Positions 4,241 to 27,688 of a stretch of 64,000 bases of DNA are shown piece by piece. Source of the stretch: Psammoneis japonica (Eukaryota); the NCBI GenBank assembly GCA_008632985.1, contig QPGO01000156.1, forward strand, positions 62,001-126,000. The letters run 5' to 3'. Under the pieces are notes generated by a model. The model was given only the letters and a program-made list of their open reading frames with translations. It was not told where the DNA came from and made no database searches. The translations under genes were made by a program, and so were the position numbers. Positions within the stretch are counted from its first letter, which is position 1. Each line of letters begins with the position of its first letter.

Positions 4241-4259
4241 GTTTACATAATATTCCACC

Positions 4260-5111
4260 ATGGCGAAAGAAGTTGATTACACGAAGGTTGATGTTGAAGA
4301 TGATATCGAGCTTGCGGACGCTGCGATTCCGGAGGCGAAGCTGGTTGACAAGGATGGCATGTTGTTGCCCAAGTTGTCGCCCAAGTTCCAAGTCACTGCA
4401 CCCTGCGATCTCGAAGCGGGTTTTGAGTTTGCCGTGCCGTTTGATGACAAGCAATACCAAGTCACCGTTGTACGTGTACACTTTGTGTTCGTGAATAGTC
4501 GTCTTGCTATTTGCTCACTCAAGCTTTTTCTTGCAGCCGTCAGGAGGTGTGAGAGCTGGACAAACCTTCCAACCGGAGAACGTGCAAGAACTGAACAATA
4601 GAACTCGCCTTCCTCTAGCGGTGATTGGATGGCCGGGGTGTTTGATTGTTTCGACAGTCCCAACTGTTTTGGGGCATGTCTGTGTGGTATGTGTGTCCAG
4701 CCTCATTTGTTGGGCACCGTCATGAACCGCTTGCGTGGAGAGAGGGGATCGTCCGGTCTCTGTGCTCTCTTGTGCGCGGTTTTGGTGATTTCAAACCTAC
4801 TCATGAGGGTTGAAGACGATTCAATTGCGGCTTTGTTTGCACTTATCTTTCTGGGTGCCGTGTTTGTTCTTCACATGGCTTCGTGTCTGGCCCGTATGCA
4901 GTTGCGCCAACGCCTCGCGATTGAAGGAAGTGAAGTGGAAGATTGCTTTCTTTCGTGGTTTTGCAACTGCTGTGTGATTCTTCAGATGCATCGCCAAGTG
5001 GATCAAATGACGGCTGGACGGAACATGGTTGGAAAGGTCTCAAAGCGATTGGTTAAAAAGATTTCAGAGAAAGAAGAAGACCCCATTAAAGTTTCCACCA
5101 TTGATGTTTAA
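4260..5111 (+). CDS. PLAC8-family Cys-rich membrane protein
   Basis: W-x-x-GVFDCF...C-x-C...P and RMQLRQRLAIEGSEVEDC...FCNCCVILQMHRQ; GT-AG intron ~4470-4536; apparent frameshift near 4600. Confidence 0.8.
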
Positions 5112-5976
5112 GAAGGAATGATTGACTGACACGAGAAAATGCTTGTGGAATGAAAGGACACTCAGGCGTGACGAAGGTCCTTAGGCAGCGGCTCAGATAG
5201 AGTCGTGTATTTTATAGGATGAAGGAATGAAAGAAATGCAAGAGTAGTTGTCTTGCTTTCTCTAGCTACTTCTATTAGGTACCTACAGACTTACCGAGGC
5301 TTAAAGCGCGATGTGATAGGAACGGAGCATCCGAATCATGTAAAACACGGAGGCAAATTGGGAACGGAAGAACGTCGCTGACAACATAGTAGGAAGTCAA
5401 ACGATCTCGATTTGACGTCTTGCCGATGGATGATTCCTCTTGGCTTATTACGCAATTTCACAGAGTAGGCACTCATCAATTGAAGTCCCACGCCACTTGG
5501 CGTGCAAATAGGTGGCGACAGACACGATCGAGGGGAGATATGAGCAGATCATTCCCGTCGATAGGCTAGTCCCTTTTGCCATTTATTCACGAGAAAAGAC
5601 ATACCTACACTCACATTGACACCTTCGGCATGAGTGGCAATCTCCGCAAGCCTTTCTCGCATGAGCACAGCATGAAAGGGCGTCCCGTATCTTCAATGAA
5701 TATATGGCAAGACGCGTGAGGGTTGCCAACGCCGTATGGTCTTTCGCGAACCAACGGCTGAGGCATCCACATGACCTAATTTCCCTTCTCGTATACTCCC
5801 TCCAATACCTTTGGTGGTGATGGTGACAGACTAGGCCCTACTGTCAATCCCTTCGTATCGCACAAGGGTAAGAGATGTTGAGTCAAACTTCATATTACGC
5901 TAATAAGCTCCAAGGGAAGTCCTGGTACGGATGACTCGAAGCTCTCTAAAGTGAATGGTAACTGATACTCCCCTGA

Positions 5977-7265
5977 TCAGCTTGATTCGGCGTCAAGTTC
6001 CGCTTTTAGTTGCTCGTAAAGCTGGAGGACTTCTTCTCGATGATAGTCGTCCCACGGCGTTTCGTACAAGGCCGCACGATTCATGGTCTCTACGGCTCCC
6101 TTCAGATTTCCTTGAGCCTTTTGTGACAGAGCAAGATGCTTGTGGACCCAGGGAAAGTGCCGGTTTATCTGCAACCCAGCATCGGCATACGTAATCGACT
6201 TGCTGTACATACCTAGATGAAACATACACTTAGACAGGCCCATGATTACGGAGAGCTCTTGTCGAGGTGTCGAGCCCTCGAAAAACCCAGGCATTTCAAG
6301 AAGATTCAAGTAGAGTTGCGTGGCATCATCCCACTGCTCCATGTTCTCATACGCCCTTGCTTTCACGAGGAAAATGTTGATGTGCCGCATTGGACCTTCG
6401 CCCTTGAATCGAGATGGGGGAGCTTGCGATGTCATTTCCTCTTTCAGTTCGTCCAGCTCGCGTTCAGCTTCTAAATCGACCAAACCCATGTTTGTCGCTT
6501 GTTCTGCGCGCTCCAATAGCTCTGTAGCTCTGTTCAGTTTCGAGTGTCGCTCATTGTCAATCTCGATGACTTGATCAACAAGCTCAATGGATGATGAATA
6601 TTCTTTTAAATCCAAAAGGATTTCTGCCTTTGTAAACATAGCTTGAACGTGGGGCTGCGTCGTCCCGGCAAGAACCTTGTCTAGCTCTTGGAGAGCCTCT
6701 CGGCGAATGCCTTGAACCTCCTCGCTGTTGCGTTTCGTTTTCTTTCCAACTGAAGCGCCCTTCGGGCAAGCACCCCTGCTTTTTCAATAGCTGTCTTTTG
6801 TATGTCTTCAGCTCTAGACCGACACACGGGACAGGAAGTCGCGTCTGAACCCTGCTCGAACCCTGCTGCCACGCCTTGCTGCCATTCGTTGAGGCATGCA
6901 AAGCAAAACTGATGTCTACAGACTTTCAAAATAACTGGATTCTGAATTTCGGTAGTCAAGCAAATGGGACAATTGTCCGTGTTGGCGGGTGTCCTGTCTG
7001 CATATTCGTCCGGCTTCTCTACAACAAGCCCGCCCTCTTGCATCACGAGCGAACCAACACTACAATCCGGCTTGTGCTTACGCCAGTCCTTCTTCTGGCA
7101 GATCTGAGAGCAGTAGTAAACGCATTTGCACCGAGAGCATCGTTTCGACGGAGCCGCCTTGCTGCATTCTTTCAAGTCACATGTGATGCAATCCCGTGGA
7201 AGCTTGTCGATGCGCTCCTGGATTGGTAGCTCCATCTCGCTGGTTGCCTGTTCCTCCTCTGACAT
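5977..7265 (-). CDS. MYND zinc finger + RING finger + TPR-like protein
   Basis: CSRCKCVYYCSQICQKKDWRKHKPDC (MYND); CPIC...CRHQFCFAC...CPVC (RING); helical TPR-like C-terminus; two ORFs joined by a frameshift or intron near 6640-6720. Confidence 0.8.
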
Positions 7266-7473
7266 GACAATTGGTAGATTTATGGAAGTTGTCTGAACGA
7301 GGCCTCTCCTCCAATACTACTCTGCTACTATATACCGGTAGCAAACCACCAGAACGGATCTGGCAATCTGCAGCCTTCACACAACGCTCTGGTGTTCCTC
7401 ATTACTATGTTCGAAAATTGAATGAGAAGGATGAAGTCTCGCCAGACTTTTGATGTTTAGGCTGACGAGCTTC

Positions 7474-7657
7474 TGAATAAATGCTGATATACTGTCACGA
7501 ATATAGGCAGTCCATATGCCATTGGCGATTGGTCCACTGTCGCTTATTTAGTGGCCCCAGCAGCGTAACATCTCACAATTCCAGAACCTGTTGATGCTGT
7601 TCAACACTCTGTCTTGTCTTACACCCAATTCTTAGCTATCATGGTAGCATTTATTCA
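7474..7657 (+). repeat. 5' LTR
   Basis: TG...CA ends; 12-bp terminal inverted repeat TGAATAAATGCT/AGCATTTATTCA; ungapped match to 13985-14168 with 18 transitions. Confidence 0.95.
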
Positions 7658-7670
7658 CTTTATCAGAGCC
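7658..7670 (+). other. Primer-binding-site-like sequence (tRNA-iMet type)
   Basis: CTTTATCAGAGCC directly after the LTR resembles the canonical copia TGGTATCAGAGC. Confidence 0.6.
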
Positions 7671-8203
7671 AACACGCTGTGATGTTCATTGCCTGGAACG
7701 GGCATCGCGAACGGTGCGACGGTGTCGTTGCGGTCGATCGATTTTTGCGGCAAGCACCATGTTGGTCCCATGGTTGCTCGCGCAATCGCTGAGTCCTTTA
7801 CATGTGTCAACATTCATGGATGTGAACGACATGCTCTTGGAGACCAGAGCTGTGATCCGTCAGACATGACGTTGGCAGACGGAATGTTTGATCAGGTGGA
7901 TGGAATGTGTTGGCCAAGGCATGCAAACATTCGCGACAATGATGAAATGATGATTTATGTGTTCAGGTCTGTCATTTGATCACATGCATTTCATTAATCT
8001 AAAAACGTTGTCAAATTGTTCAGACACTGTGCATGTTGATGCATGTCTGTTGGACATTGTTGCTTGGGAGTGACACCGCCTGCTCGCGGGTTCGCCAAGC
8101 AGAAACCGCCAAATCGGCACGAGAACCACACATTTTTCTCACTTTCCTCCACTCACACAAGTGGATGCTCACGCGTCGAAACGCGAACAACTGCTGATGC
8201 ACC

Positions 8204-11200
8204 ATGGCCGCTGCCGCAGCCTTTGCCGCCTGTCTCACGCGTTGTGGACACAATGCGCAGACGCGCGCCCACACAGCCCGCCAAGGCTTTGCTGCCATCG
8301 AGGACCTGGAACAGGTCCCTTTGATGGAAATTGCCGATGTGACTGAGGGCATCATGAAGAGCGTTGACACCACCGCCAACCCCCAAGTCCGCTTTCCACA
8401 CCTGGCGAATCGCAAGCTCAAGGCACTGCGCGCATGGATTGACCACCGCAGAGCCCAGAACCAAGAGCCGACCGCTGCTCTCTTCGCTGGCGACGTCATT
8501 GGAACATGGGCGGCACGTCTTGTGGAACCAGAGCAATTCAAGTCCGCGGACTCAGACGACAAATCGGCTGCCAAAACGGCCGTGGAGCTCAAGAACCCAC
8601 ATGACTGGCCTGCCTTCCAAGAGCCACTGGAGACCGAACTGCGTCACCACCGCAGTGCCGTTGCCGGAGTGCCCCCCATCTAACCAGTTGGGGAACATGA
8701 AGAGGTCACCGCCAAGATGTTGGCTGCCACCTGCACCACCATTGACGAGGACCTCATTGCCACTGCCCGCCTTGCAGGAGCTCAGTGTGCGCAGGACAGG
8801 CAACGCCTGCATGATCTCTTGAAGAAGCCAGTGATGGGGGGGCCTGGATGGGCTTTTGTCAAACCTTCCAATCGCAGTCGCGATGGTCACACTGCTTTCT
8901 TTGCACTCAAGAGGCAGGCAGAAGGATCGGCTGCCGCCACTGCCCGAAAGAACCGTGCTTGTGCACAGATTGCTGCTGCGAAGTGCACCGGATGGGGTCG
9001 ATTTACCTTTGACCAGTGCATTCAGCATCATCAAAAGGCTCACAACGACTTGTCTGAGCTTGATGAACTGGTGGCCGAGACCAAGAAGGTCTCTGACTTT
9101 CTGAAGGGCATCTCCGATCCCAGGTTGGAAACTGGCAAGAGCGCAGTGGATGGAGACCCGACGAAGCTAGCAGATTTCGAGGCATGCCAGCAGTGCATGA
9201 AAACTCTGGTCGAAAATGCCAAGAACCACAATGCTGACACTCGCGGGATCGCATCCATCCAATGCCGCAACAACCAGCGCAACAACCCTGGTGGAAAGCA
9301 CCAACCTAAGAAGGACAAGCCAGGATCCGGGCAGGCCATTGTCCCATTGAAGAGTGGAGTGCTCTTGACGGTCCCGAATGAGAGCAAGTCCAAAAGCTCC
9401 GCGATGCCAAGAAAGCTGAAAAGAAATGCAAAGCTGCTGCTGCATCCTCGGAGGCTGAGTCGGTCAATGCGAAACTCGCGCTGTCAAGAAAGCAGCTGTT
9501 GCCGAGCCTGCTTCTCAACCTGCTGATGAACCGAAAGACTCCGAAGAGCCTGACAAACCTGCCGCCAATGCAGGTGCCCAGTTCGGATGCAGTGCACATG
9601 AGAAACCTCAGAAAGAGGAATGAACAGTTGCGCCAGCACCAAAAGGCATGGAACCGAATGTCGCCAAACCTGCTGGCACCATTTGTTTGTCTGGGCGATT
9701 CTCAAAGGATGCACACATCTCTTTGTCATCTGCTGGGAATTCAGATGATGAAGCCACCACTGATTTGGACTCGCACGCTAACACGTGTGCTGTTGGGTCC
9801 AATTTTGTGATGCACTCTGACATCGACAGAACTGTCGTGGTACACCCTCACTCCGAAGAGCACGCACCAATGGAAAACATTCCCATTTGCACGGCTGCCA
9901 CCGTGTGGGTTGATCCAACTGATGGACAACCACACCCACCACCAGTCCACGAGGCTGTGTTTTTCGGGGACAAGATGACCAACACCCTCCCATGCCCCAA
10001 CCAACTGCGAGCGAATGGGCTGATTGTCCATGATGCCCCTCGCCAGTTTGATCCAACTGGCACACACTCCATCTCTTTTCCTGACTCGAAGATCAGGGTG
10101 CCATTGCGAATGCGAGGTGTTGCTTCAGTCTTTGATTCACACAAGCGACAAAGGAGGATCTGGAGAACCTCCCCCGGCTGGAACTGGCATCACCCCTGAG
10201 ATGGGAGCCTTCTGCTGATGCCCTGGCGCAAAAGGAGGAAGTGCGTGCATGTGCCAGTGTGCGCCAAGGATCAGCAAAGTCGGACGGACGGTCGACGATG
10301 ATGAATGCGACCAGGTGTGTCACTTCCATTCATTCATGCCAAACATCCTGTCATGACGAGAATGTCATCATGGATGCCAATGACGACGATTCTTTGTATC
10401 ACCGCCTGGTTGCTCAGGCAAATGTCTCCCACAACGACACTGAGGGAGACGGGCCACATGACCGGCATGACCCAGATATCCACCCAGATTGTGCCAAGTG
10501 GAAACGGGTGTGTGCACTGTCGACCTCGAGTCGTGCATCGACCATCACGCCCGAGACACTCTCTAAAAGGTGGAACATTGGCCTGACGGCCGCTAAGAAC
10601 ACCCTCAGAGTGACGACCCAGGCAGGGGTCCGTAATGTCCACACACCATCCGAACGGAAAGTCCGGAAGAAAGCCCCTTGGCTTGAGTTCCCTGCTGTCA
10701 AGGGACGCTTCTACTCCGACCAGATGTTTTCGAAGGTCAAATCGACACATGGTGAGACAGGAGGAAGCGCACTTGCCAACGGAAGAGGGTGTGACAGGTT
10801 CCATCCTTGGAAGAGGAAACAGGACCACCCGGATGCCGTCATGTCATTCACACATGACGTTGGCGCACCGCAGGTCCTTGTGTTGGATGGCGCACCAGAA
10901 ATGGCGGAAGGCCAGACCAAAGAGATCTGCAAGGAATGCAGGACACATCAGGAGGTGTCCACCCCGCACAGCCCCTGGCAGAACCCAGCCGAGGCATCCA
11001 TTCGTGAGTTGAAGAAAAGAGTCCGTGTGACTCTATGCTGGACTGGCGCTCACAGGCGACTTTGGTCCTACAGCACCAAATGGACATGTGACATCCGACG
11101 CATGATTGCGACTAGCATGTCGGACATGGGAGGACGAGTCCCAGAAGAGGAGGTGACAGGTTCGACACCCGACATCTCTTCCCTCTCTCTCTTTGATTGG

Positions 11201-13833
11201 CATCAACCTGTTTGTTGCTGCGTGCCTGTGGCGGAGTTCCCACACAAAAAGAAGTGCACAGGCCGTTGGCTCGGAGTAGCTGACAACTGCACTGACGACA
11301 TGGCATTCATCATTTTGCCCGAATCGGACAAACCCATCATTCGGAAGGATGCATGGGCTGTGCCGGAGGATGACCTTAAAACTCCAGCAATCCAGATGGA
11401 TCTTGCATCGGTCGATCAAGCTTTGATCGAACGGCTTAGCATCCCGGAAAAGGATGCCAGTGCTGACTTCCCTGAACTCCCTGACGACTTCATGGACGAA
11501 TGGGACGATGCCGTTGAACCCGTGGAACCCAATGCTTCCAAACCGGAAGCTGATGAGTGTGCCCCGGAAGGGCCAGATGAGCATCTCACAGCTCAAGTCA
11601 TGTTGCCACGAGGAGGCGAGCTGACTCATGCTAGGGTCATTGCACGCAAGCGAGGTGGCGACGGGGTTCCTGTTGGTGCTAGGAACGACAACCCTGTCCT
11701 AGACTCAAGGACATATGACGTGGAATTCCCTGATGGATCCACTGATTCCCACACTGCTGACGTCATTGCAGAGAACCTGTTCGCTCAGATCGACTCTGAA
11801 GGGAATGCCTGCCAGATCATGAAGGAGACAGTCGATCACCGACGTGATGCCCGTGCCGCAACGGCCGATGACGGGTGCATGACGACTGAGACTGGCAGGC
11901 GTGCTCCTAGGAGGACGACTGCAGGCTGGGACCTGCAAGTCAAATGGAAGGATGGGACTGCATCCTGGGTTCCTCTCAAGGATTTGAAGGAGTCCAATCC
12001 AGTCGAGGTTGCTGAGTGCGCTGCAGCGAACAAAGCAGCCAGTGAACCAGCCTTCAACTGGTGGGTCCGAGACGTCTTGCGTCGCAGATCAAGGATCCTG
12101 AAGAAAGTCAAGTCACGTCACTGGAAACGCACGCATGAGTTCGGAATTGAACTCCCAAAATCTGTCAAGGAAGCCATGGAAATAGATGACAGAATGGGGA
12201 CCGACTTCTGGTTCAAGGCCATTGAGAAGGAAATGCGCAACGTCATGCCTGCGCTCGAATTCCGCGATGACGACACTGTGCCGGTCGGGCACAAACATGT
12301 TGATTGTCACATGATTTTTGACATCAAGAGCACCCTCCAACGTAAAGCGAGGTTCGTGGCCGGAGGCCATCAAACCGATCCACCCAAGGAATCGACCCAT
12401 TCCAGCGTGGTGTCGCATGACAGCGTTGGGACAGCATTCACCACACAGCAGCTCTGAATGACCTGGAGGTCCTGAGCGCTGATGTTCAGAATGCCTGCTT
12501 GAATGCACACACTGAGGAAAAGTGTTGCACCACTGCTGGCCTGGAACTTGGGAAGCAGAGCAAGGGAAGGCTGGTGATCATTGTCCGTGCCTTGCATGGT
12601 CTCAAGTCTTCAGGTGCAAGATTTAGGGAACATGTGGCAGCTGCTCTGCGGGATGCTGGGTTCGAGTCTTGCAAGGCTGACCCGGATGTCTGGATGCAGG
12701 CTGCGGTTAAGCCGGATGGCTTCAAGTGCTGGGAACATGTGCTTGTCTATGTGGACGACTTGTTGTGCGTCTCCCATGATCCTCAGAAGGTCATGGATTG
12801 CATGAGCTCTGGGTGCACGCTCAAGGACGGAAGTGTCTGCGAACTGGAAGAGTGCTCAGGCGCCCAGATCAGAAAGTGCCAGCTGTCTGACTCGGACAGC
12901 AAGACACGCTGGGCTGTGTCCTCTGACCTTTGTGTCAAAAGGGCATCAGCTGACGTTGAATTAGAGCTTAAGAAAACTGATGGGCGTCTTCCGACGAAGG
13001 CGTCGACGCCCTTGAGCTTGGGATGCAGGCCTGAACTGGACGGTTCACCTGAGTTGAACGCCAAAACGGCTGACTGCCATCAAGGCCTCATTGGTGTGCT
13101 GTGGTGGGCAGTTGAACTGGGGTGAGTGGACATTTTTGTCGCTGTCTTGCTCATGTCCTCCTGCTTGGCAGCACCACGAGTTGGACACCTGGACGAGGTG
13201 CTCCATGTCTTTGCATGCTTGAAGGCTCGCTCTGTGTCTGCGCCAGTGTTCGACGACACTGAGCCCGTCTTTGACGAGAGTCACTTTGCCAAGTGTGATT
13301 GGGAAGAATGTCACCCTGGCGCGGCTGAACCAATGCCACCGAACATGCCAGAGGCACGCGGGAATGGCGTGGCTGCTGCTTGCTTTGTCGATGCTGATCA
13401 TGCCGGATGCCGTGTGACGCGCAGGTCCCACACTGGGATCCTGACATTTGTCCAACGAGCGCCCATCTTGCATTGCTCTAAGCAGCAGAATGCCGTAGAG
13501 TCCTCTGCTTTTGGGTCGGAGTTCGTGGCTATGAAGACTGCAGTGGAGCAAATCAAAGCCTTGCGTTGCAAGCTTCGGATGCTCGGAATCCCCATGGATG
13601 GGGCCACTGACGTTTTCTGTGACAATGAAGCTGTCTTCAAGAACTCAACTAAACCAGAGTCCACTTTGAAGAAGAAGCATAATGCAATTGCCTGTCACAG
13701 GACTCGTGAGGCACAAGCCGCTGGAACAGTGTGCATTGCTTGGGAAGATGGATGCACGAATCTAGCGGACGTGCTAACTGAGTTGTTGCCTGGACCGAAG
13801 CTCCGGGAAATCACAAGTCACATCCTGTGGTGA
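8204..13833 (+). pseudogene. Copia gag-pol polyprotein, disrupted
   Basis: Protease DLDSHANTCAVG; integrase PHSPWQNPAE; RT KARFVAGGH, ALHGLKSSGA, YVDDLL; RNase H DADHAG...RRSHTG, FCDN; stops or frameshifts at ~8681, ~10145, ~12445 and 13123 (CGA>TGA). Confidence 0.92.
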
Positions 13834-13971
13834 GTCCCAAAAGGGGACAAACCGAACAGGTTTGCCACGCAGGTGCGGCTTTTCCCACCCCCAAAACAAA
13901 AGCACCACCCTGGAACAGGGCAGCATCAGGTTGCACTTGTCTGTCGATCTGGCCCGAGCGGAGCCAGTGTC

Positions 13972-13984
13972 AGTTCAAGGGGAC
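13972..13984 (+). other. Polypurine tract
   Basis: AGTTCAAGGGGAC immediately before the 3' LTR. Confidence 0.65.
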
Positions 13985-14168
13985 TGAACAAATGCTGACA
14001 TGCTGTCACGAATGTAGGCAGTTCATGTGCTGTTGGCGATTGGTCCACTGTCGCTTGTTCAGTGGCCCCAGCAGCACAACATCTCACAATTCTAGAACCT
14101 GTTGATGCTGTTCAACACTCTGTCTTGTCTTGCACCCAATTCTCAGCTGTCATGGCAGCATTTGTTCA
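13985..14168 (+). repeat. 3' LTR
   Basis: Same length as the 5' LTR; TGAACAAATGCT...AGCATTTGTTCA. Confidence 0.95.
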
Positions 14169-15724
14169 CTTCAGAAATCAGCGGTTTCCTGCCTGTGTGC
14201 CTGCCTGCCATGCCGTGCCGTGCATCTGCCATGCCATGCAACCACAGGCTCAGTTGCAATGCAACAGCAGTTTGCAGAGCCATGACCTGCCACGGTGTGT
14301 GGCAGTTGCCATCTGCCATCTTTTCATGGCTGACATGAGAGGGAGACCTGAGCATCATCAATGCGCAGCAGCAGTGCTGTGCTTGATTTTCCTCATTCAA
14401 GGAGGCTGAAGGAGAGACTGAGCTCCTGAGACGTCACTGGCGCACACAACATTTCCTGGCTGGGAAAATGAGTGTCCTGCAACCCACCACACCTGGTGGC
14501 TGCCCAAGTTGTGGTCATTGCTTCAGTGGATGACAGGCACTGGGGCAGAAACACATGGCAGAAAAATGGCCAAAAAGCCACCTTGGTGGTTGTGTTCTGC
14601 ATTTTCTGAGTTGGACCCTGCCAAGCTGAGAGCACAGCATAAAAAAATGAGTTGTCACACACATGTGGACAAACTTTTTTTCACATTTAGCAGTGTTCTG
14701 TGGCATGTGTTTTGTTCAAGTTGGGTGGCAAGAAAGGAGAATGAGCTGAAAAAAGGTTGATGATCTTCCAGAGATGAAGTTTGCAAACATGGCCAAAGGG
14801 CAACAGAGCCGCCATCCTCTCTTTGGCACTCTGACCAACCTGGTGGAGACATTGTTGACTTCATGCCATCAGACAACTGCACAGAGGTTGAGTTGTGAAG
14901 AGCCAGCTTCTTCGTTGACATTGTGGTGGGTCTGAATGTGTGGCCCACACAGCCCGCATTTGCCAATGTCATGGCAACTCTTGGAGGACTGCTTGCTTGC
15001 AGGCAAGGAGTTGAGGCTTTGCCACACTGTTTGAGAGGGATTTTTTGACAAGTTTGCTGCTGACAAAGCCAAGTGCTGTGGTGGGTGTGTCAATTTCCAC
15101 GTGAAACTGATGGAAGGGCTTGATGTGCAGCATCCAAATGCTGTGAAAGTCACCAGTGGCAAGGCCACCTCTGCCAACTTGCACCAGTCAAGTGGCCAGC
15201 TCAAAACTCAGCCAATCATCACATCAATGTTTTGAAATGGGAGCTGCACAATCAAAAAATTGTTTCCCTGTCATGTTTGCAAAATGTTGGTTGCACAAGG
15301 CTGCAGCAGCAGAGCATCAAAACAACTGCAAAAACTGGGACATGTTTCTGCATGTCTGGGTGGACATCCTGGCAACATTGTGAACATGATGGCACTCAAG
15401 AATGTTCATGCCAGGAAAGAGATCCTGACTGCCAGAGCCTTCCCATGTTTTGCCACCATGGTGGTTGTGTCATGACAGAAAAAAATGTCTTTGTCCCCAC
15501 TGGAGATTCTTTCTCTTTACCTGAAAAACAACAATTTTTCTCATTCACCACATGGCAGCCCCGTGCAATGTTGGCAGCCTTCAGAGGCTCTGCGGCTGCA
15601 CATCCAGCACTTGGTGCATTCCTCACAGCATCATGACAGCCCCACAGAGTGCTTGATGTGCAGCATTGGCCTCTCACAAGGCTCTCAAATCTGCCAGCTG
15701 GTCTGTGCTGCACCGCCACATGTC

Positions 15725-18700
15725 CATCTGGGACACCAACAATCTGGGTGTTGCACCTGCCATCAAGAATTTTTGAATTGCAGCCAGGCAACTTCTCTGT
15801 TTAATCCAAGATTGTGCTGATTTGTCAAATCTACATTTGTGAAATGTTCAAGAACAAACATCTTCATTCCCAAAGTCAATGAATTTCTCTCCACTGCATG
15901 GAAAAAACTGCGGTGCAGTTTGTGCTCATGTTGAGTCCTGAATGAAGTGCAACCCACTTTCCCCAATTCAAAACTCTGCAGTCATGTGTGAGGTTAGATT
16001 CGTCTTTGCTTCAATTTTTTGGCTCCCTGTCCATGCCATTCTTTGTTTTTGTGCAATGCCCCCCATGTTGCTCTTCTTCATTTGCCCCCAGCTTGCAACC
16101 CTGCTTTTCACCATGTGATTGCTGTGCCACGTGATTGATGTTTGCCTTCAATGCATTCCTTCCATCACATTGTCATCTTGACATTTCTCCAACATGCTTC
16201 ATTGATGCAGTCTGATGGTCTTGTTTGTCCCTGGTGCAAATGTTCTGGGTTCAGTTCCAAGCATGATCTTAGTCAGAGCACATTGCTGCCCCAACTGTCT
16301 CCTTTTCATTGGTCTGACCAAGTCTTTCAGTTGTCTGTTGTGGACATTGTGGTTTTGACTCAGAAAACCAGGTGCAGTGTCTCCTTTCCCATCACTGCAC
16401 CACTTCCACTGTTCTCCCTTTGCCAAGAACATGGCAGCATTCAAGAACTGAAACATCCTCCCTGTCTGGTCAGACATTGTTGGTTTCTTTGCTTGCTTCC
16501 TTGGGATGCTGACTCTGTTGCCTCTCTTGGGTCCAATGCCAATGGACCAAAATGTCCCCATTGCCAAGTTCCCTTTTTCAACATTGCCCCGCACATCCAG
16601 AATTGTGCACCCTGCTGCGAGAAGAAGGAAGCATCCCTTTGATGCTCTGCTGCTGCTTCAAATGCTGTCAATTCATTTTTCCCTCCAGATGATGACACAT
16701 TTGGTGACAATGATGATGACTCCATGTTTGGTTTTGCTGATGACAAACCCCAGCCCCTCCCTGCCTAAAGTCCATTTGAACCCAGATCCACCTCCTCCTG
16801 CACACTCTGACAATGCTTCTCCTGTCAGCTCCCCCGTGTGCACCCACCCTGTCAAATGCTCTGGTTGCTTGCATGCCGCTGCCAATGCAGCCACTGTGAT
16901 TGATCACCGATTTGTCTCATTTGCCAATGATGGTGTGTCTGCCCTCAGAGAGGACAGTTCTGTGGATGTTTCCAAGACCATTGCAGCTGATTCTCGATGG
17001 CACTTTGGGCCCTCCCTTGATGTCATGTCCAGCAGAAGACACAGCGCTGCTCCTCTCCTGTCTGTGTTGACTCAGCTGCAGTTTCCTCATTTGATCCCAA
17101 AACTTCACTGGGGCTGGCATGCAACCTGCCCCTGATGAGAACTTTGATGTCCCTCCAGTCCACTCACCCAGCACTGTGCTCATAATTTGGCTGCTGCCTC
17201 TCTGTCTTTGGTCAGGTGTTGCAATTGACTTGATCAACAAAGTTGTGAGAATGGCCCATGAAGAGCATGCAGAGAAAAGATTGGATTTGCCACAAAACAT
17301 CACATCAAGTGCAATCACAATGGTTTCCCACAGACACTTGTTTGTCAACATCTCCTCCAGGCAATTCTGTGTTGTGTTGTTGATGAATGGCATCCATCCA
17401 TTGCAGCTGTTAAAAAAAATCTTTGTGTCAACTTCATGACAGCACAAACTGCGCACTGCATCATTTTTGTCAAGAAAGGACCTGTTGGTCAAAGTGGGGT
17501 GCCTTTCTGCTGTGTTGGGAAAAATGCCAGTGCACCACACACCACCCAGCTGGTGCCAAGGACAATGCAGCTCACAGCACTGTGGGCCTGACAGGTGGGA
17601 AAAAGCAGACAACAAGCAATCACCAAACCAGCACAACCACCACCAGCATCAATGAAACTGAAAATGCTGTTGGACCAACTGCCCAACATGCAGGGATGGG
17701 TGGCCCAAAACCTTGGCACCAAAGTCAAAATTCACTGTCTCTCCATGTGATTCAGCACCGCCACCAGCAACACAACCAAATTGATGCTCGATCTCAGGCA
17801 TGTGATGATGGCAGCAGAGGGAACATGCACTCCAGTGATTGTGGCAGTTCAATGCAACCAGCACATCCACTCAACACCCATGTCAATTTCAACAACATGA
17901 TGGGAAACAGATTGTGTGTGAGTTCATGGTGAAGCGGGCTGGTGAATTGTGTGTGAACACACATCATTTGGATTTGTGATGATTCCATTTGGGCAAGAAC
18001 AGTGAGACAGCAGTTGGAGATGCAAGCATTGCATTTTATGGGATGAATGAGATTGTGGTGCATTGGCAGCAGAGGAGGGCATCAGAAATGAGGAGGAAAC
18101 AACCAACTTGGTTGTCAACAAAATTTTACAAGAAAAGTTGCAGAATTTGCTTAAATCAATGCAGAGCACACACTGGCACATGTGAATGGCTTGCATTGGA
18201 GCACAATTTCAAAACAGTGAAAGGTTTTGAAAATTTCAAATGTCAAGTTAGAAATGTGCTCACAAATCTGACACAGAGACCTGTTTGAATGAATCTGGGA
18301 AAAGTGAGCAATTGCAAAACAGAGAAAATCACTTGCAAAGTGCACTCATTTCATGACTTCTCATGTCACAAACTAGACGGAACACAGAAAACAGTGCAAC
18401 ACAAGAGCTGCCTGTTGGAACAGGAAAAAAGATGGAGAAGACAGTTGCCACAGGAGTGACAATGCAAGATGGTGGGAGCATGATAATGTCATGTGGCACA
18501 AGTTGGGTTGAAGAGGGCAGGACAAAGAATGACAGTTGCACCAAACAAGTTGCAGCCGGCCATTTTGGCATGCTTTGCAGTTGCCATGAGTCCTGTGGCA
18601 GTGGGATTGCTCAATGCACAAACAAACGAGTGCAGGGAATTAAGCCAATTCCAGTTTGCAGGCAGGGACTCAAGTTCTGTTGTGACACCTGCGGAGGGAT

Positions 18701-20131
18701 GTCATGCAATGGATCAAGCTCCAGCAGTTGAGAGAAATTGGCAGGGTCCATGTTGATGAAGGTGGTCAATGAAAGTGTGCAGCCACATCACAAGTTCACA
18801 AACTTTGACAGAGAACTTGCAGTGGGAGGAGAGCACATGAAAATGGTTCTGCAGGAGTCAGGAGCATGGCATCTGCACCAGATGCATTCTCCGATGCATG
18901 CAAAGATGCAATCAGAAAAAACCTCAACCACAAAAGGAACAATGCACAGGACAACACAAGGAGGAGGATGACAGGTGAGCAACACAGTGCAGGCATTCAG
19001 CAGTTGTAGATGGGATTGTCTGACGGCCAAGTGTGAACTCCATTGTTTTCATCAATGCAGTTGCTGCTTTAGAGGGGTTCTTGCTGGATGAGTGTGAAGA
19101 CTTGAACAAGGGCAGGGGTGACAAAGACATGTGCACGTGGTTCTTGGAAATGGTGGTGCCAACTGTGGTGGGCTGAGTGCAGTTTGGCAGCAGAAGCACA
19201 ACCAATTTGCTGCAAGAGTGGCTCACTGTGTCATTGGAGGCCTTTGCTCTGCTGGTGTGCTTAAACTGCTGTGACAAGGTGGCTGACATGGCAGAAAAAT
19301 TGGAGAAGGATGACAACATTGCAAGGCACAGAAAGCTGATGGTGGAAGATGCTGCATCTGCAAAGTGCACGGTGATGGCAAAGGGGGAATCAGCTGAGAG
19401 GAACCAAGGATGGAGCAAGGAGTGGATCAAGAAGCACAATGAACTGTGCAAGTGGGTGAAGAAAGACCAAGAGGAGAATGAAGGATTTGGTGCATGGTTC
19501 AAGGAATGGAGGTGAGAGAAGGTGAACTTGTCCAAGGATGCAGAAAAGAAACACAAGAGAGAGAGAGAGAGGAGAAAAGGCAGGAGAGAGAGGATGGATG
19601 GGCCACGCCAATTGGAGAGGACCTGCCCTTGCAGCCAGTGGCTGCTGGCAATGACACAGAAGCAATTGCGTCCATGTGGCAAAAAACCAAACTGGTGCGT
19701 GAATGTAAATTGCAGCAAACAACAAAATCCAGAACACAGCAAAAACAAAGAGGCAAACTGCAAGGCAATTGTTGGTCAAGAAAAAATGGCAGTTGCAACA
19801 TTTGCTTTTAAAACAAGAACAGTGCAAAGAGACAAAATGCACAAGGATGTTGCAGGCAAAGATGGTGGATCACATGTGGCAAGAGTTGTGATGAAGGAAT
19901 GAGGAACAGCAAATGTCAGAAAGGGTTGAGATTAAAATTGTGGGCAGGAACATTCACACTTCAAAGTGGGGCACAAATTCAAATCAAGAAGCTCACAAAC
20001 TCAATTGGTTCTGAATGCACTGACATTGCAAGGAAGACTTGGCTCTCAAGCTCACAACATTCTGGGATTGCAGTCGAGAAACACCCAGATTTTGACAGGT
20101 GGTCAGACCCAGATTGTTGGTGTCCCAGATG
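15725..20131 (+). mobile_element. Degenerate TIR DNA transposon (~4.4 kb), possibly CMC/EnSpm-Plavaka-like
   Basis: 25-bp perfect inverted repeats CATCTGGGACACCAACAATCTGGGT at 15725-15749 and 20107-20131; TC on both outer sides (possible 2-bp TSD); CPWC zinc-finger-like remnant near 16230; accessory ORF at 19177-19515. Superfamily is inferred. Confidence 0.65.
19177..19515 (+). pseudogene. Transposon accessory ORF remnant, related to 1514-2125
   Basis: TVSLEAFALLVCLN...KCT...GWSKEWIKKHNELCKWVKKD. Confidence 0.55.
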
Positions 20132-20199
20132 TCCATCAAGAAGACTTCAACAAAGTGAACCACAGATGCTCTCAAATTCAAAAGGCATGTTGATGCAAG

Positions 20200-23100
20200 G
20201 CAAACAATGGTGGTGACAGCAACATCATTGTCAACATTTGATGACAGCACAGTTTTTGCCAGCATCTGGCAGCCTTGAGGCCAGCATTTGACTTGAAAAA
20301 CATTGTTGTTGTGTGCAGTGCACTTGCACATCCATTGGAGGCTGTGGCCCACAGCTCTGCTGCCAAACCCACTGTGTGAGCCAGCAGTTGGATGCAATTG
20401 ATGATGTTTTGTCCAGTGCATATGGCACATTGTGGAGAAGGGGGGGGGGGGGGGGGGCACTCCAATTGACAACATTGCAGCCAGCAAATGGAAGCTTGTT
20501 GCGGAGCCACCAACATCCAGCCAGCTGCAATGCCACCAACCACTTGGCACATTGTGTTTTTGAGTGACATTCTCTGGGCACCTGAGCAGAGGCAAGGAGC
20601 TGGCATTTGCTTGTGATTGAACCTTCAACTTCTGCTTTGCTTGCAGACATCAAGAAATGGCTGACAATGCCTGGCTTGTTCACTCCCACCAGTCTCTTCA
20701 GCATTGAGTTGTGGGCAAACCAGCTCATTGCCAGCTTTGGATGGTCCCTTGCTGAGCATGCCCAAAGTCAGCAGTCTCCAGCCTGGGCAGATCAGGCAGC
20801 AGACAGGTTCAAAAGCCATCTGACTGCAACAAGTTGACACCAAGCAGTGTCTCTGAGGAGCCATTGGTTGTCCCAGCTTTTCTGAAGGTTTCAAGGCTGC
20901 AGAGTTTCAGAGTTTCTTGGTTTGGGTGGTGAATGGCATGGAGGCAAGGGTTGCTGCACAGCCTTGATCCACTTGCCAAACTCTGTGATGCTGTGCATGG
21001 CTGCTTGGTGCAAAAATTTCATGCCCAGGTTCTCAAGTTTCTTGGTGGTCACAAACCTGAGCATCATTGATGTTGTGTGCCCATGTGTCAACACAGGTGT
21101 CCAGAGTTGCCAGGGGCACCAGCTGAGCTTCAGCCCTGCAAAGCCCTTCTTTTAGACAGACTGGGGTGAAGAAAGCTTTGTCAATGTCAGGGGCAGTGGC
21201 AGAGACTCAGGAGCAATGACACAGCTGCTGCTGCTGGTGGTGGCAGATCTTGAGCCACAGGTGCAGCTCAGTGGTCATTGGTTGTTTCAAAATGAACATC
21301 AGGTGCAGGAGGGTTGAAGGCAGTCCAGACATGATTGCTCATGCCTGTTCCATGTCTTTTGACCAGCCAAGGAACAGGGTCCAGGATGCAGACTGGACAA
21401 CATTCCCACTCTGGTGTGCACACATCACAAAAGCAATTCTGGGCAAGGCTGACCCAACAACAATGTCCACATGGGGGAATGCCCTTCCTTGCACACTTGG
21501 TGTCATCTCAAAAAAGTGAGTGCAAGGCATGAGGAAACACCACCACAGGCAACAGGCATGTGCGCCAACATCACTCTTGCCATGTTGGAGACCAAATTGA
21601 TGCTGTGTTCAGCTGCCCCATTCTGATGGTGAGCATTTGTGCCACAGAACTGGCTGGAAGCATTGCTCTTGTTGTCATGCTGTGTGTTCTTGCACAGCAG
21701 CTCTGGCCTTGAAAGTGCCACCATCCACCACACAAAAAATTGTGAGACAATGCTGTGGTCAAGCAGATGTTTCCCAAACATGCGTGTTTGGCTCTGATGG
21801 CTTCCACAGCCAAACACCAAGTTGGCACCCAATGTGGAGACACCCAGAGGCATGTCCCACAAAAAACCTCATTTGATCTGCTGGGTGGGGAGCTTTGCTT
21901 CAGGAGTTGTGGGCACACCTGAGAAGATGGGCTCAAAGCTGACAGCCTGACCAGAGCAGAGATGGTTGGCTTTCAGAGCTCCACCTTGCTCAGGGGCTGT
22001 GGAGTGCCAGGCAGAGCTGAGGGAACAGAGATGGCCTTTTGCATGCTCGCCTGCACATTGAATTTGGGTGGCAGGAAGGAGTCAGCACAGATCAAGCCTT
22101 GGATGAATGCAAGTGCAGATGATGACCAAAACACAAGTGTGCCACTCCAAAACAAGCTTTTTCCCAGTGGCAAGGTTTTGATTGTTTTTGTTGAGTGCTG
22201 CAGGATTTCAACTTGGAAAGTGGGCTCAACACCATGTGAGATGGCATCAGCAACCATGCTTGCTGTGCACAACATGCTCCCCCCCCCCCCAACCAAACAG
22301 CAGCTGGGGTGTTGGGAGATGTTTCCCAGCTTTGTTGGGAATGTGGTGTGTGCACAGCTTTGACAACAAGCATGAAGCCTCCTGTTGGTGCATTGTGGAA
22401 CACTCAGGAGTTTGGGGGGTTCCCAGACCAGCAACAGCCAAGCCATTTGTCATGCCACCAAGCTTGAGGGGCTTTTCAAGGACCATTGCTGCAGGTCCTG
22501 TGAAGTCACCCACATGTCACCAGCAAAAACTGGCAAGGCTCCAGTGTTGCATGTGACCACAAGGCAGTCATGTGCAAGACTCAACAAGCTTTGAAGGTCA
22601 GCAGCAAAGATGCTCAAGTGGGTGTTGCCAAACAGTGCCTGTGCAGAGGCGAGGCTTGGATGCACAGCAGTCACATCTGCAGCCTCTTGAAGGGGCTTTT
22701 CAGGATCTTGCCAGGTGGCAGGAGTGTGTCAACAAAGTCAAGGTTGACAGACAACTCATTGAAACAAAAACAGTCTGGTGGCACTGTCTCTTTGATGAAC
22801 TCAAAGCAGCAGTTTGGACTTGCTTGCAAGGCAATGACAGACCAGTGGCAAGTCTTTTCTGAATTACAGGCATGTTGGTCAAGAAGTTAAAATCTTCAAG
22901 AATGGCTGAGCTGCAACGACATGCATGCTGACAGCATTCAGCATCCCAGGGTGGCCAGAGCTTCTCACTGAGGCAGTGGTGGTCAGGATTGTGCAGCAAG
23001 CACTTGTTGCCCTTGACCTTGTTGCACCATGCAAACTGCCACAATCTGGCTCAATCATGTCATCCAACTGTTCCACAGTCAAGAAGACTTGGGAGCTTGC

Positions 23101-24450
23101 ATGTGCCAGCCAGCTGGCTGGACAAATGGCAGGTGGTGGGTGTCCAGACCATGGCAGCACTGGACAAGACCACTCACATGGATGGAAGGCTGGGCGTGGT
23201 TGGGATGACAGCTTTGTGGCACATGCAATGGGGAGTGGGTGGAGCAGTGCAAAACAAATGCATGGAGCCATTTCTCAGAACTCCAGAAAGCAGCAAGGCA
23301 GAAGCCTGAAGTTTCTGTGTCCATTTGACACTTGACACTCAACAAAAGTTTGGGTTTCAGGGACACAAGCTCACAACAATGACAGTGGATGACGCTTCTT
23401 GGAGGCAAGAAGCTTTTTTCAGAACCTTAAGAAGCCACATCTCTTGCTGCAGCCGCAAGACATGAAAGACATCTGGGTGCTTAATTTCATGTGCAGAGTG
23501 CAGGCCAAAAACAACTCAATGGCTTGTGCCTCAGTGTCAAAAGTTGAAAGAGCATCAGAGAAAGTGGAATTTGTTTTTCTGGACCAGACATCTCTGCCAG
23601 GACAGGAGGCATGGGTTTGACCATGACAGCTGCCCTCTTGATGGCTGACACAGCAGGACTGAAAGTGACAGAAGTGTCCACAGGGGCAGCAACCAAAGAC
23701 TCTTTAACAGGAACACACACCACATGACACAGAAAAGACACTCATCAGGGTTTGAAGCCCTTTGCTGTGGGAGGCCAAAGGGAACACATGAAACATGATC
23801 AGCAAAGTGGTGCAGAGAGGCTGGCACCAAAGCCCCAGAATTAGACTTGGAAGGTTGTTTGCCTTGTCAATGTGCTTGATTTGCACCATTTCCAGACTGT
23901 GCCAGCCCCTTTTGCTGTTGGTGTGAGCATCACAAACATTGACAAAATGCCCAGCAGGCTTGGAAGGTTCAGCTTGTGTGTCAGCAGCTTGGGTGGTCTT
24001 CCTCTGGTCTGCTTTGCACACTGTTTCTTGTGTGCAGGAGAAGTGAGGAGCTTCGTGCAGCCAGCTGCACCCCAACCATGAAGATGCTGCTTGGTGATGC
24101 CAAAGCTCTTGTGAGAGCAAAACCCAGCTGAGGCAGTTTTGATGCCAAGGTGGGGCAATTCTCATTGCCAATGAGCTTGCCATGGGTTTCTTTTGGCAAC
24201 AAGGCCAACGGCACCACCAGGACTGAGATCTGAGCAGTCAGAACACTTGGGGATGACCTCAGCTGGGTTGGATGTCACTTCCCTTCCAACTGCTTGACAA
24301 GGTCCAACTTGAGATAAAAGTCTGGTGGCTCTTAAAGAAGAGCTCAGAGGATGCTTTGGACACCTTGGGTGAAATGGCAGAGCCTGTCTCAGATGGCAGC
24401 ACATGATCCATCTGTGCACAATGTTGGCTGGATGCAGAGCTTTGGTTGTG
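20200..24450 (-). mobile_element. Second, heavily decayed Ty1/copia relic; boundaries approximate
   Basis: Minus-strand remnants in copia order: protease-like NTGA...GDFTGP...LGGMTNGLAVAGLG (~22400-22560), GAG-pre-integrase KLVLEWH..FGH (~22120-22170), integrase FCGTNAHHQNGAAE...VSNMARVML (~21570-21650). Confidence 0.7.
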
Positions 24451-24728
24451 AGCTCTGTGCAGTTCAGGGTCGCTGTCACAACTCCACAAAACGGACACAA
24501 AACAGATTCATTTTAGTTGCCCAAAATGAGATCATGAGATGCGATTTGCTGGGGTCTTTTTAAAATAAAATGGCTCAATGGACTGCCGAAAACATGCACT
24601 GCATTGGCCTTTTACGCATTTGTGTGCTCCATCCACACAAAACTGCACACCACAACTCTTGTCAGCAATCCACAACCAAACCACCATGTGTTGTCACAAC
24701 CCAACAACGAGTTTTCAGCCACCATGCA

Positions 24729-25477
24729 ATGCCACAGAACGTTTTGTTGCTTAACATGGCTCCGTGCATTTCCGCACCAAACATCGAGTGTTTCCAAGGT
24801 GCACTGGATGCTTGTTGTTGTTGGAAACCAGACGAGGAACTGCATCCATTCTGGAAAGCCAAACTGATCAAGGGAGACTGCATGTGTTGCTGTCGGCATC
24901 AGAAAAAGTGGGAAAGAAATCTAGAAAGTCGTTGGTGTGTTTGGTCATGTTGGCACAGAGCGACATCAATTCCAAACGCAATGCTTGAAAAACTGCAAAA
25001 GATGACTGTGGCTGTGGTGTCTTGGCCATCCACATGCGACGCTCGGCAGAGGTCGCCATCCATTTTCACTTCTCGCACAATGCACCGCAGTGTTTTGCTG
25101 TCCAACAAAAATGTTGACGACTGGACTGCACTGCTTCTCTGGGTGCGATGTTCCATCACAGTCGTTCCCGTAATCTGAACTGAGTCTTCACGCCTTCTTC
25201 TCACAAGGCTGGGGATGGGTTTTGGCATCGGCAGAAACACATCGCTAAGGCCTTGACGTAATGGTGAGATGCATCGTCATCCGGCATTTGGCAACACACC
25301 GACACCACGGATGTGCGGTGGTTGTCGTAAGGCCGATGTGGCATTGCAGAAGCCTTTGGAGAAATGCACATGGTGCAGGCGTTATTCTGCTGTTCCAAAC
25401 AATGCCATCGTCAGGATTGGAAGAAGCACAAGGAGCACTGTGCTCTATCAAGAAAGAAGAAATGCAATGGTACCTGA
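24729..25477 (+). pseudogene. Host MYND-finger gene eroded by TpA loss
   Basis: C-terminal CGGC...KCTWCR..(frameshift)FCCSKQCHRQDWKKHKEHC; upstream ACCCWKP and DCMCCCRH runs; TpA-poor but CpG retained. Confidence 0.6.
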
Positions 25478-25644: not shown

Positions 25645-26216
25645 TCAATAATCACCGCCAAAGTCCCAAGAATCCCCATGAGCTCTTTCGACTAGCACTT
25701 TGGCCCCCTCCACTTCGTACTTGGGATAAATTACGTAAAAGGGATACTTGGCAGGCCACGTCTGATCGTAATCGGTCTTCCACCTTGGAGCATCGCTGCA
25801 GTTGACAAGCATTAAATCAACGCCCCGCTCGCCTTCTGGTGGGTCTCGCACGCGCCCCTCCCAGCCAAGGCATAAACCAATCTTGCCCCTCCACATGACC
25901 TTACCTTTGGGGGCCAGATATCCATACATGTCAATGTAGTCACTGGTGAACCTGAATTGTTGCCTCTTGTGGTGAGGGTGCGTAAGTGTACATTTTGCAA
26001 GAATAACTTTCGATCCCAGCGCCTTGTGTCTTCCTTGAATGCACAACTCATTGGGACCGAATTTACCCCAGGGGGTTCCTCGTTTTAGTTCGCGATCTCC
26101 ACCTCTTTCTTCGTCATTATCATTTCGTTGAATGCGAGTTTGGCGTGTGCCTCGTTGCTAACACACGAAAGAATTCCTCCAAGCAGCATAAACACTTTAA
26201 CGTGGTAAGTCTTCAT
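25645..26216 (-). CDS. Small secreted ricin-B/beta-trefoil-like protein (paralog of 27149-27688)
   Basis: Signal peptide, RELKR, LCIQ...C...QQFRF...LCLGW...C...W; frameshift near 26120. Confidence 0.6.
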
Positions 26217-27148: not shown

Positions 27149-27688
27149 TTAACGGCCAAATTCCCATGAAATTCCGTATTTCACCACTTGCACCTTGGCG
27201 CCCTCCACTTCAAACTTGGGTTCCATCGAGTACTTGTAATTTCTGGCAGGCCACGTGTGATCATAATCCGACTTCCACCTTGGGGCATCGTCGCACGAAA
27301 CGAGCACTAAATCAACTCCCGGCTCGCCTTCAGGCGGTTCTCGCACGTCTCCTTCCCACCCAATGCATGTACCTTTCTTGCCCCTCCACATGATCTTACC
27401 TTTGGGGACCAGACCTCCATAATCATCAATATAATCATTTGTAAACCTGAATTGCTGTCTCCTATTGTTGGGTTCTGTATGTGTGCACTTGGAGAGATAG
27501 AACTTTGATCCAATCAGCTTGTGTTTCGGTTGAATGCACAAGTTATCAGGAGCAAATTTACCCCACGAACTTCTTTTCAGCTCTCGGAGTCCACCTTCGT
27601 CTTGATCAATTTCGGCGAACACGAGTGCTGCATGTGCCTTGTTGCGAGCCAAACAAAGTGTACTTGCAAGCAGCGCAAAGAGTTTCAT
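27149..27688 (-). CDS. Small secreted ricin-B/beta-trefoil-like protein
   Basis: MKLFALLASTLCLA signal peptide; LRELKR; collinear with the 25645 paralog (VREPPEGEPGVDL vs VRDPPEGERGVDL). Confidence 0.65.
   Translation of the reverse strand: MKLFALLASTLCLARNKAHAALVFAEIDQDEGGLRELKRSSWGKFAPDNLCIQPKHKLIGSKFYLSKCTHTEPNNRRQQFRFTNDYIDDYGGLVPKGKIMWRGKKGTCIGWEGDVREPPEGEPGVDLVLVSCDDAPRWKSDYDHTWPARNYKYSMEPKFEVEGAKVQVVKYGISWEFGR

Follow-up and report, generated by a model that had tools for sequence, protein, structure and literature searches.

A domain of repetitive and degenerate DNA from which the dinucleotide TpA is almost completely missing was found in a 64-kb stretch of contig QPGO01000156.1 (positions 62,001–126,000; hereafter the window), which probably derives from a diatom. 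The domain includes a Ty1/copia retrotransposon, and the pattern is very probably the accumulated footprint of a TpA-specific A:T>G:C hypermutation that acts in place on chromosomal DNA, is limited to repeat and degenerate sequence, stops at active genes, and is of the same kind as that described for Bigelowiella natans (Mettrop et al., bioRxiv 2026, doi 10.64898/2026.01.13.699255). The window looks like a second, more extreme case of this recently described kind, near saturation on retrotransposons, and not like a new kind.

The depleted stretch was examined in the context of the whole window, using observed/expected ratios (O/E) of dinucleotides in 1-kb windows together with strand-symmetrised values for defined regions. 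A 188-nt direct repeat (7473–7660 and 13984–14171), 90% identical, identifies a long terminal repeat (LTR) element in the depleted stretch. It has the LTR pair with TG...CA ends, the polypurine tract and the gag-then-pol order of Ty1/copia. The open frame 10136–12454 (773 aa) gave 49 matches to polyproteins of 1355–1924 aa with PF07727 (RVT_2), identity reaching 55% in the best; the element's own RVT_2 match is below threshold (23.6 bits against 31.6), as are its other Pfam matches. A protein search for further copies of the same copia family found nothing above 57% identity, and a Pseudo-nitzschia copia is among the relatives at 29%. The parts of the element are as follows:

7474–7665, plus strand: 5′ LTR with TG...CA ends, unmutated; 15 TpA, 78 per kb
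7666–13984, plus strand: internal part of the Ty1/copia element, TpA O/E about 0.13, CpG 0.70; 41 TpA, 6.5 per kb
about 8279–9295, plus strand: gag-like region, by tblastn
9765–13830, plus strand: pol, by tblastn, with collinear matches in three frames and shifts near 10085–10145 and 12448–12454
13977–13983, plus strand: polypurine tract
13985–14173, plus strand: 3′ LTR with TG...CA ends, mutated; 10.6 TpA per kb

The two LTRs serve as an internal before-and-after control. Of the 15 TpA that the 5′ LTR contains, fourteen are now CA (seven) or TG (seven) in the 3′ LTR, and one is kept. The remaining differences between the two are three C>T, one A>G and one G>A at a CpG, plus two at the ragged end. 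Taken as approximate counts, 14/15 TpA sites against about 5/173 other positions have changed (Fisher p = 3.5e-16), a relative excess at TpA of about 90-fold, which is a ratio and not a rate. The change is thus near saturation at TpA, within a background divergence of about 3%. Both LTRs are copied from one template during reverse transcription, and editing before integration therefore cannot produce such an asymmetry.

The coding part of the element gives the same direction. When pol was compared with 16 relatives, 121 differences were counted in 670 conserved columns, 53 of which correspond to a single TA>CA (21) or TA>TG (32) change. Among 30 conserved Tyr columns, 14 are Cys and 13 are His, with only 3 kept (7/9 in a one-frame first pass), and Tyr makes up 0.5% of the 773-aa frame vs 3.1–3.9% in eight relatives. 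Relative to 20 full-length relatives, pol contains 8.1 TA per kb against a median of 50.9 (minimum 27.6), whereas TG (100.6 vs a median of 73.9 per kb) and CA (83.4 vs 67.8 per kb) are raised; CG stands at 51.4 vs 54.8 per kb and GC at 54.6% vs 47%, again against medians. In this comparison the missing TpA (about 43 per kb) balances the gained TG and CA (about 42 per kb). The TpA O/E of related copia loci lies between 0.48 and 1.00 in 78/78 (median 0.73), and none of their 1143 1-kb windows falls below 0.3, in a set of relatives that favours intact copies, a Tyr having been part of one search pattern and only the 80 best matches having been retained. The depletion also spans unrelated sequence classes with common edges, including a TpA-free, CpG-rich stretch at 3876–4243. 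These data support a change from TA to CA or TG (A:T>G:C) made on chromosomal DNA after integration.

Extent and edges of the TpA-depleted domain

In 1-kb windows, the TpA O/E is 0.02–0.21 over 1–4000 and 8001–25000 and 0.40–0.98 elsewhere in the window, and the O/E of TG and CA in the depleted windows rises up to 1.6–2.2. The values for AA, AC, AG, AT, CC, GA and GC equal those of the flanks; only TA is down and CA/TG up, CG being reduced as well in the older blocks. The signature is confined strictly to TpA. The segments of the window outside the element's own parts, with strand-symmetrised O/E values and TpA counts or densities, are as follows:

1–4243: left depleted domain; 13 TpA, 3.1 per kb
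1–3870, no strand: old degenerate block, low in TpA and CpG, which continues past the left end of the window; O/E of TA 0.05, CA/TG 1.80, CG 0.14
3876–4243, no strand: left domain edge, the last 368 bp of the left domain; 65 CpG per kb and 0 TpA
4244–7473, no strand: spared gene island with a PLAC8 gene (plus strand) and a MYND/RING/TPR gene (minus strand, open reading frames (ORFs) 5977–7316); 35.9 TpA per kb
7662–14171: copia element; O/E of TA 0.13, CA/TG 1.51, CG 0.70
14172–20771: O/E of TA 0.05, CA/TG 1.87, CG 0.11
14174–20771, no strand: old repetitive degenerate DNA
20772–24470, no strand: degenerate single-copy DNA with the strongest depletion; O/E of TA 0.04, CA/TG 1.87, CG 0.04
14174–24470: 33 TpA, 3.2 per kb
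24471–25400, no strand: right domain edge in single-copy DNA, graded over about 1 kb, with CpG already near normal while TpA climbs
24471–25170: 8.6 TpA per kb
25171–25400: 21.7 TpA per kb
25401–64000: 39.5 TpA per kb
Flanks: O/E of TA 0.54–0.57, CA/TG 1.16–1.17, CG 0.90–1.02

The longest run without TpA measures 1712 bp inside the domain (within 20772–24470) vs 217 bp in the flanks, and the zero count over 3464–4243 has a probability of 6e-14 at flank density. The left edges of the depletion are sharp and the right edge is graded. The left domain stops at 4243, 16 bp upstream of the probable ATG (4260) of the PLAC8-family gene. The second domain begins where the 5′ LTR ends; about 160 bp separate this LTR from the start of the divergent MYND/RING/TPR ORF, whose upstream region abuts the LTR. 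At the right edge, the ORF 24564–25175 has no relative among 1.84 billion representative proteins, so it gives no support to spread into a host gene there.

Copy number was estimated from the summed k-mer depth of placed contigs, from position 5500 on, with a single copy at about 57. The copia element reaches a summed depth of 5600–11300, that is, roughly 100–200 copies. The block 14174–20771 has depths of 160–1150 in most bins and is moderately repeated over 15460–20771, and 20772–25400 is single-copy (depth 56–63 over 20772–24470). Glimpses of other copies in the contigs differ by adjacent CA and TG alternatives at 16432/3, 18362/3 and 18442/3. A Pfam scan of 81 ORFs of at least 90 aa from 1–4300 and 14172–25400 gave no transposable element (TE) domain at E<=0.05 beyond chance-level matches, and in a self-BLAST of the window the old blocks resemble neither each other nor the copia element.

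The initial annotation had described TpA as nearly absent from this stretch and from 1–4240 and plentiful in the flanks, which agrees with the densities found (3.1–6.5 against 35.9–39.5 per kb). Its starting point at 7474 has to be moved to about 7666, the 5′ LTR (7474–7665) keeping its 15 TpA, and the right edge, up to 25400, is a gradient (8.6 per kb and then 21.7 per kb). Of the roughly 18 kb that it assigned to TEs, 6.7 kb (7474–14173) is verified copia and about 6.6 kb more is likely to be TE, being repetitive by depth only; the remainder is unproven. Its description of the phenomenon as restricted to TE domains is too strong, with part of the depleted DNA being single-copy (20772–24470) or promoter-like.

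The depleted sequence is reproduced by raw reads. In one sequencing run (X1), from the only study found to contain the stretch, k-mer contigs cover 14144–25400 at depths of 55.9–76.2, in pieces of 425–3122 bases with 1–6 other letters each, and the neighbouring genes have a similar k-mer depth of 52–57. Since contigs at single-copy depth reproduce the sequence, the depletion is not an artefact of assembly.

Sequence context, strand and relation to CpG decay

The TpA sites that survive are not a random sample with respect to their neighbours (R, purine; Y, pyrimidine). Among them, 60% are YTAR and 6% RTAY, compared with 17% and 30% in the flanks. Expressed as TA/(TA+CA+TG), the retained fraction in the young element is 0.012 for RTAY, 0.025 for mixed contexts and 0.070 for YTAR; in the old blocks it is 0.001, 0.009 and 0.037, and in the flanks 0.271, 0.216 and 0.147, respectively. 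The pool of CA and TG able to regenerate TpA is flat, at about 25% per context class, so random re-creation of TpA does not explain the YTAR bias. It is shown, then, that RTAY sites are lost first and YTAR sites last. In the old blocks only 2/1584 RTAY sites are left, which suggests a long-lasting or repeated process and not a single episode.

The two strands are affected evenly overall, with seven sites each way in the LTR and 14 Cys against 13 His at the Tyr codons. Locally, pol sites at which both outcomes are visible show 13 T>C and 2 A>G in 9765–12447 vs 4 and 12 in 12448–13830 (Fisher p = 0.001). The excess of TG and CA amounts to 43.7 and 7.9 per kb in the 3′ part of pol vs 16.9 and 21.6 per kb in the 5′ part, and the share of sense-strand A>G is about 85% in 12448–13830 vs about 44% in 9765–12447, with the switch near the frameshift at 12448–12454. 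As a property of the whole domain, strand-coherent tracts are unsupported: the TG/CA skew varies no more across it than it does in the flanks (SD (standard deviation) of z 1.30 vs 1.36), and such tracts rest on one region, 12448–13830.

CpG is nearly gone in the old blocks (O/E 0.04–0.14), a loss for which deamination of 5-methylcytosine (5mC) is probably responsible. In the young copia element the CpG O/E is 0.70, and the 3876–4243 stretch keeps its CpG with every TpA absent. TpA loss is near-complete where CpG is hardly reduced, and it is therefore faster than CpG decay or independent of it. The only in-frame stop in the reverse transcriptase (RT)/RNase H part of pol, a TGA at 13123–13125 where relatives have Arg (ELGRIDI), fits a CGA>TGA change by CpG decay rather than the TpA process.

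Proposed process, alternatives and known systems

The explanation that we favour, taken with all its layers, stands somewhat better than even in our judgement. An adenine deaminase, with an ADAT2/TadA-like or other deaminase-fold protein as the candidate, would convert A to inosine (I) at 5′-TA on either strand, a step to which we give slightly less than an even chance. DNA carrying a mark of silent or foreign status would be its target, and I would become G on replication. Exposure of a single strand at a time along a tract would be compatible with the patchy strand bias between 12448–13830 and 9765–12447. Together with 5mC-type CpG decay, both self-complementary pyrimidine–purine steps would drain into TG and CA, which would destroy Tyr codons and inactivate the element. 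The depletion covers the copia element and repeats and stops at genes, and part of it is single-copy DNA of unassigned origin; a link to silencing or 5mC, a double-stranded DNA substrate and a role in defence are putative.

The initial annotation had likewise proposed that TpA sites are replaced by TpG and CpA through A:T>G:C transitions confined to TpA, and the LTR pair, the Tyr codons, the mass balance in pol and the dinucleotide O/E values all agree with it. Its further proposal that chromosomal DNA is the substrate is borne out by the LTR asymmetry and by the unrelated sequence classes that share common edges.

Several points weigh against this reading or parts of it. The 5-bp flanks of the copia element differ (gcttc at 7469–7473 vs gaaat at 14174–14178), with no matching target-site duplication, and the element may have arisen by recombination between two insertions or be missing one of its flanks. 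The LTRs may then not be sisters, and the edge at 7665/7666 could be a crossover point instead of a chromatin boundary. This weakens the argument on timing within the same insertion and leaves the direction of the change unaffected; action in place also rests on the common edges across unrelated sequence classes and is equally unaffected. Targeting of A and targeting of T leave the same outcome in the sequence. A context rule read per strand (TAY or RTA favoured) is right in 14/20 mixed contexts, made up of 7/8 LTR sites and 7/12 Tyr codons with a preceding pyrimidine, which lends weak support to a per-strand reading, and the unexceptional TG/CA skew of the domain as a whole is no help to strand-coherent action. 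Among 118 copia relatives, found in searches biased against mutated copies, one alone (P0045, described below) has a partial Tyr loss, so the process is not widespread in the clade as sampled. Finally, no sequencing platform is recorded for the run that supports the sequence, and this run probably comes from the same sample as the assembly.

Among the alternatives, a lesion of thymine has the best standing, though we consider it unlikely. In silenced DNA, T at TpA would be oxidised by a dioxygenase of the TET/JBP type to 5-hydroxymethyluracil (5hmU) or 5-formyluracil, which would mispair with G and give T>C on either strand, the same outcome at an A:T pair as deamination of adenine. The lesion would have to be highly mutagenic to approach saturation at a background divergence of about 3%, and we know of no report of TpA loss in dinoflagellates in spite of their very large amounts of 5hmU, which counts against it. 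According to the available parts of the sources, TET/JBP-made 5hmU marks and silences dinoflagellate TEs (PMC11572971), and early work on Crypthecodinium placed 5hmU preferentially at TA and TC (as cited in PMC11071213), but base-resolution mapping in Breviolum revealed no sequence preference (PMC11071213). The dinoflagellate system resembles the present one as a thymine-directed mark on repeats, with a historical TA/TC preference, in another lineage of the SAR group (stramenopiles, alveolates and Rhizaria); as described there (PMC11572971) it is a modification with no reported mutational footprint, whereas here the base itself is changed.

A dedicated enzyme would be dispensable if error-prone repair or replication in late-replicating methylated heterochromatin were the cause, for example through patch repair triggered by T:G mismatches and a Pol-eta-type signature at WA (W, A or T). 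The strong CpG decay in the old parts of the domain means that mismatch-triggered repair would be frequent there. The unchanged AA, AT and AG values reject the Pol-eta WA signature, all 14 context-specific LTR changes are at TpA, and the young copia element and 3876–4243 lost TpA with little or no loss of CpG. In B. natans, moreover, the process was on in only 11/15 lines according to the available text (doi 10.64898/2026.01.13.699255), which suggests regulation. We regard an origin in repair as improbable.

Editing of retrotransposon RNA or cDNA before integration, by an ADAR-like or APOBEC-like enzyme and followed by insertion of the edited copy, is very improbable. Retroelements are the classic targets of such enzymes, and A>G hyperediting that favours a 5′ U is what ADAR produces, as pointed out in the Discussion of the preprint, whose available text also describes the B. 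natans targets as single-copy integrated DNA viruses that mutate in situ (doi 10.64898/2026.01.13.699255). ADAR and APOBEC editing of retroelements shares with the present case a deaminase-type hypermutation with a nearest-neighbour preference, but it acts on RNA or cDNA, is strand-asymmetric and would leave the two LTRs with the same edits. In the window an intact 5′ LTR faces a 3′ LTR with 14/15 sites converted, both strands are changed (7:7), and unrelated old repeats, single-copy DNA and a promoter-like stretch, none of them recognised as retroelement, are depleted too with common edges.

An equally slight chance is given to a sequencing or assembly artefact in which a modified base at TpA is misread; it draws on the missing platform record and the probably shared source sample, but the same sequence emerges in contigs of the raw run, which are unbranched over kilobases and as deep as the neighbouring genes, and conserved Tyr codons are destroyed in a pattern that matches real mutation. 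A misread palindromic TpA would also give mixed CA and TG calls, and each site being a clean CA or TG argues against it. Low TpA as an ancestral state, or selection against TA in these elements, is the least probable of all. A mild genome-wide under-representation of TpA (flank O/E about 0.55) speaks for it, but the O/E is at least 0.48 in 78/78 relatives, conserved Tyr is destroyed and the element's own 5′ LTR is TpA-rich.

The initial annotation had set aside fungal repeat-induced point mutation (RIP) and 5mC deamination as causes, and rightly so: TpA is removed, GC is raised, and TpA is lost without loss of CpG in 7666–13984 and 3876–4243. RIP, which depends on RID and DIM-2, is alike in being a regional, near-saturating set of transitions at the DNA level that disables repeats and can extend into unique DNA next to them. 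It consists of C>T changes, for the most part CpA>TpA, and increases both TpA and AT content, the reverse of what is found here. As for duplication as a trigger, the copia element has roughly 100–200 copies by depth, yet the single-copy 20772–25400 is depleted too. The function of the RID-related DNMT4 of diatoms is given as not known in the available part of PMC9998398. Deamination of 5mC at CpG in methylated TEs has the same end products, TpG and CpA, but cannot remove TpA, and in the young copia element TpA loss is well ahead of CpG loss.

The closest system is that of the chlorarachniophyte B. natans, for which the available text of the preprint (doi 10.64898/2026.01.13.699255) reports 15 mutation-accumulation lines in which 231/302 nuclear mutations lay within two regions of integrated viral DNA. 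The de novo rate was about 6e-7 per site per generation, some 1000 times that of the background. There, 230/231 mutations were A>G or T>C, every A>G or T>C one was at TpA, and 11/15 lines were affected. The genome contains 124 TpA-poor, CpA+TpG-rich clusters, its low-TpA coding sequences (CDS) are enriched for RT and DDE domains, the targets are integrated DNA of nucleocytoplasmic large DNA viruses (NCLDV) as well as of virophages, and an ADAT2 homologue was proposed as the enzyme. The same signature appears in these de novo mutations, so a real mutator of such a kind exists. As in B. natans, the change in the window is A:T>G:C only, at TpA only, regional, and yields TpG or CpA according to strand, with a long-term footprint of reduced TpA with elevated CpA+TpG that in their case includes CDS with RT and DDE domains. 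In contrast, the target here is an LTR retrotransposon and old repeats instead of integrated viral DNA, and the depletion is far deeper (O/E 0.04–0.13 vs a Rho of 0.45 for their NCLDV region). The RTAY>YTAR context, the sharp edges at genes, the LTR asymmetry and the co-occurring CpG loss go beyond their account: the available preprint text makes no mention of diatoms, retrotransposon LTRs, flanking context or domain edges. The statement of the initial annotation that no description was known in diatoms stands, none having been found in the literature, but the novelty that it implied does not hold for the signature itself, which is in the 2026 preprint. Apart from that preprint, no description of TpA-only A:T>G:C hypermutation was found in the literature, and Maumus et al. 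2009 (PMC2806351), searched by term in its accessible text, does not mention mutation of this type.

The window shows the end state of TpA hypermutation on an LTR retrotransposon, apparently in a diatom-like lineage other than B. natans. The RTAY>YTAR flank preference is a constraint that any candidate enzyme must reproduce, the base-level edges adjoining genes can be compared with chromatin marks, and the evidence that TpA loss outruns CpG decay is an addition to the available preprint text on B. natans. Should the process be widespread, the TpA O/E would be a simple marker for genome scans for such a defence, and TE annotation would be biased as Tyr codons and TAA and TAG stops are erased and long spurious ORFs arise. 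The enzyme, if found, would merit attention as a DNA A-to-G editor of natural origin. In a bolder version, about which we are doubtful, TpA-directed base conversion would be an old arm of genome defence across SAR protists (Rhizaria and a probable stramenopile) that recognises the palindromic RTAY in silent chromatin and erases >90% of the sites in young retrotransposons alongside CpG decay. The enzyme behind it would then be without natural precedent as a DNA adenine deaminase, or T-modifying mutator, that is targeted to chromatin and directed against transposons.

Further observations on relatives, reads and neighbouring sequence

P0045, a distant copia relative of 1405 aa encoded on an ENA contig of another dataset, has a Tyr content of 1.7% vs 3.0–5.0% in the others, with 5/22 conserved Tyr replaced by Cys (four) or His (one); judging from its sequence, it may carry a partial footprint of the same process elsewhere. 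A second relative, P0016, has three Tyr>Cys replacements.

Over 5500–7472 and 14144–22092, the run X1 shows fixed differences from the window, for example TG vs TA at 22066, TA vs TG at 18153, and several between CpG and CpA or TpG. A second, diverged contig was obtained from the same run over 6538–7267. The differences between run and window point to allelic or strain variation, partly at the same dinucleotides.

Just outside the depleted domain, a 510-bp direct duplication (25691–26198 and 27186–27685, 73% identity) spans two unannotated minus-strand ORFs. None of the window's proteins has a counterpart of high identity in the protein collection: the best MUS81-like match stands at 54%, and the only relatives with a named organism are one from Fragilaria crotonensis at 37% and the Pseudo-nitzschia copia at 29%. 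The proteins of B. natans are public and would be expected to match almost identically if the window came from that species, which points to another, probably diatom, lineage. A diatom would fit the long ORFs without interruption and the multi-copy HA-domain protein encoded in the window. Four tandem ORFs with ricin-B-lectin domains, 67–73% identical in DNA, occupy 54406–60428, and tandem 176-bp repeats, 93% identical, lie at 43781–44243 inside the MUS81/EME1-like ORF.

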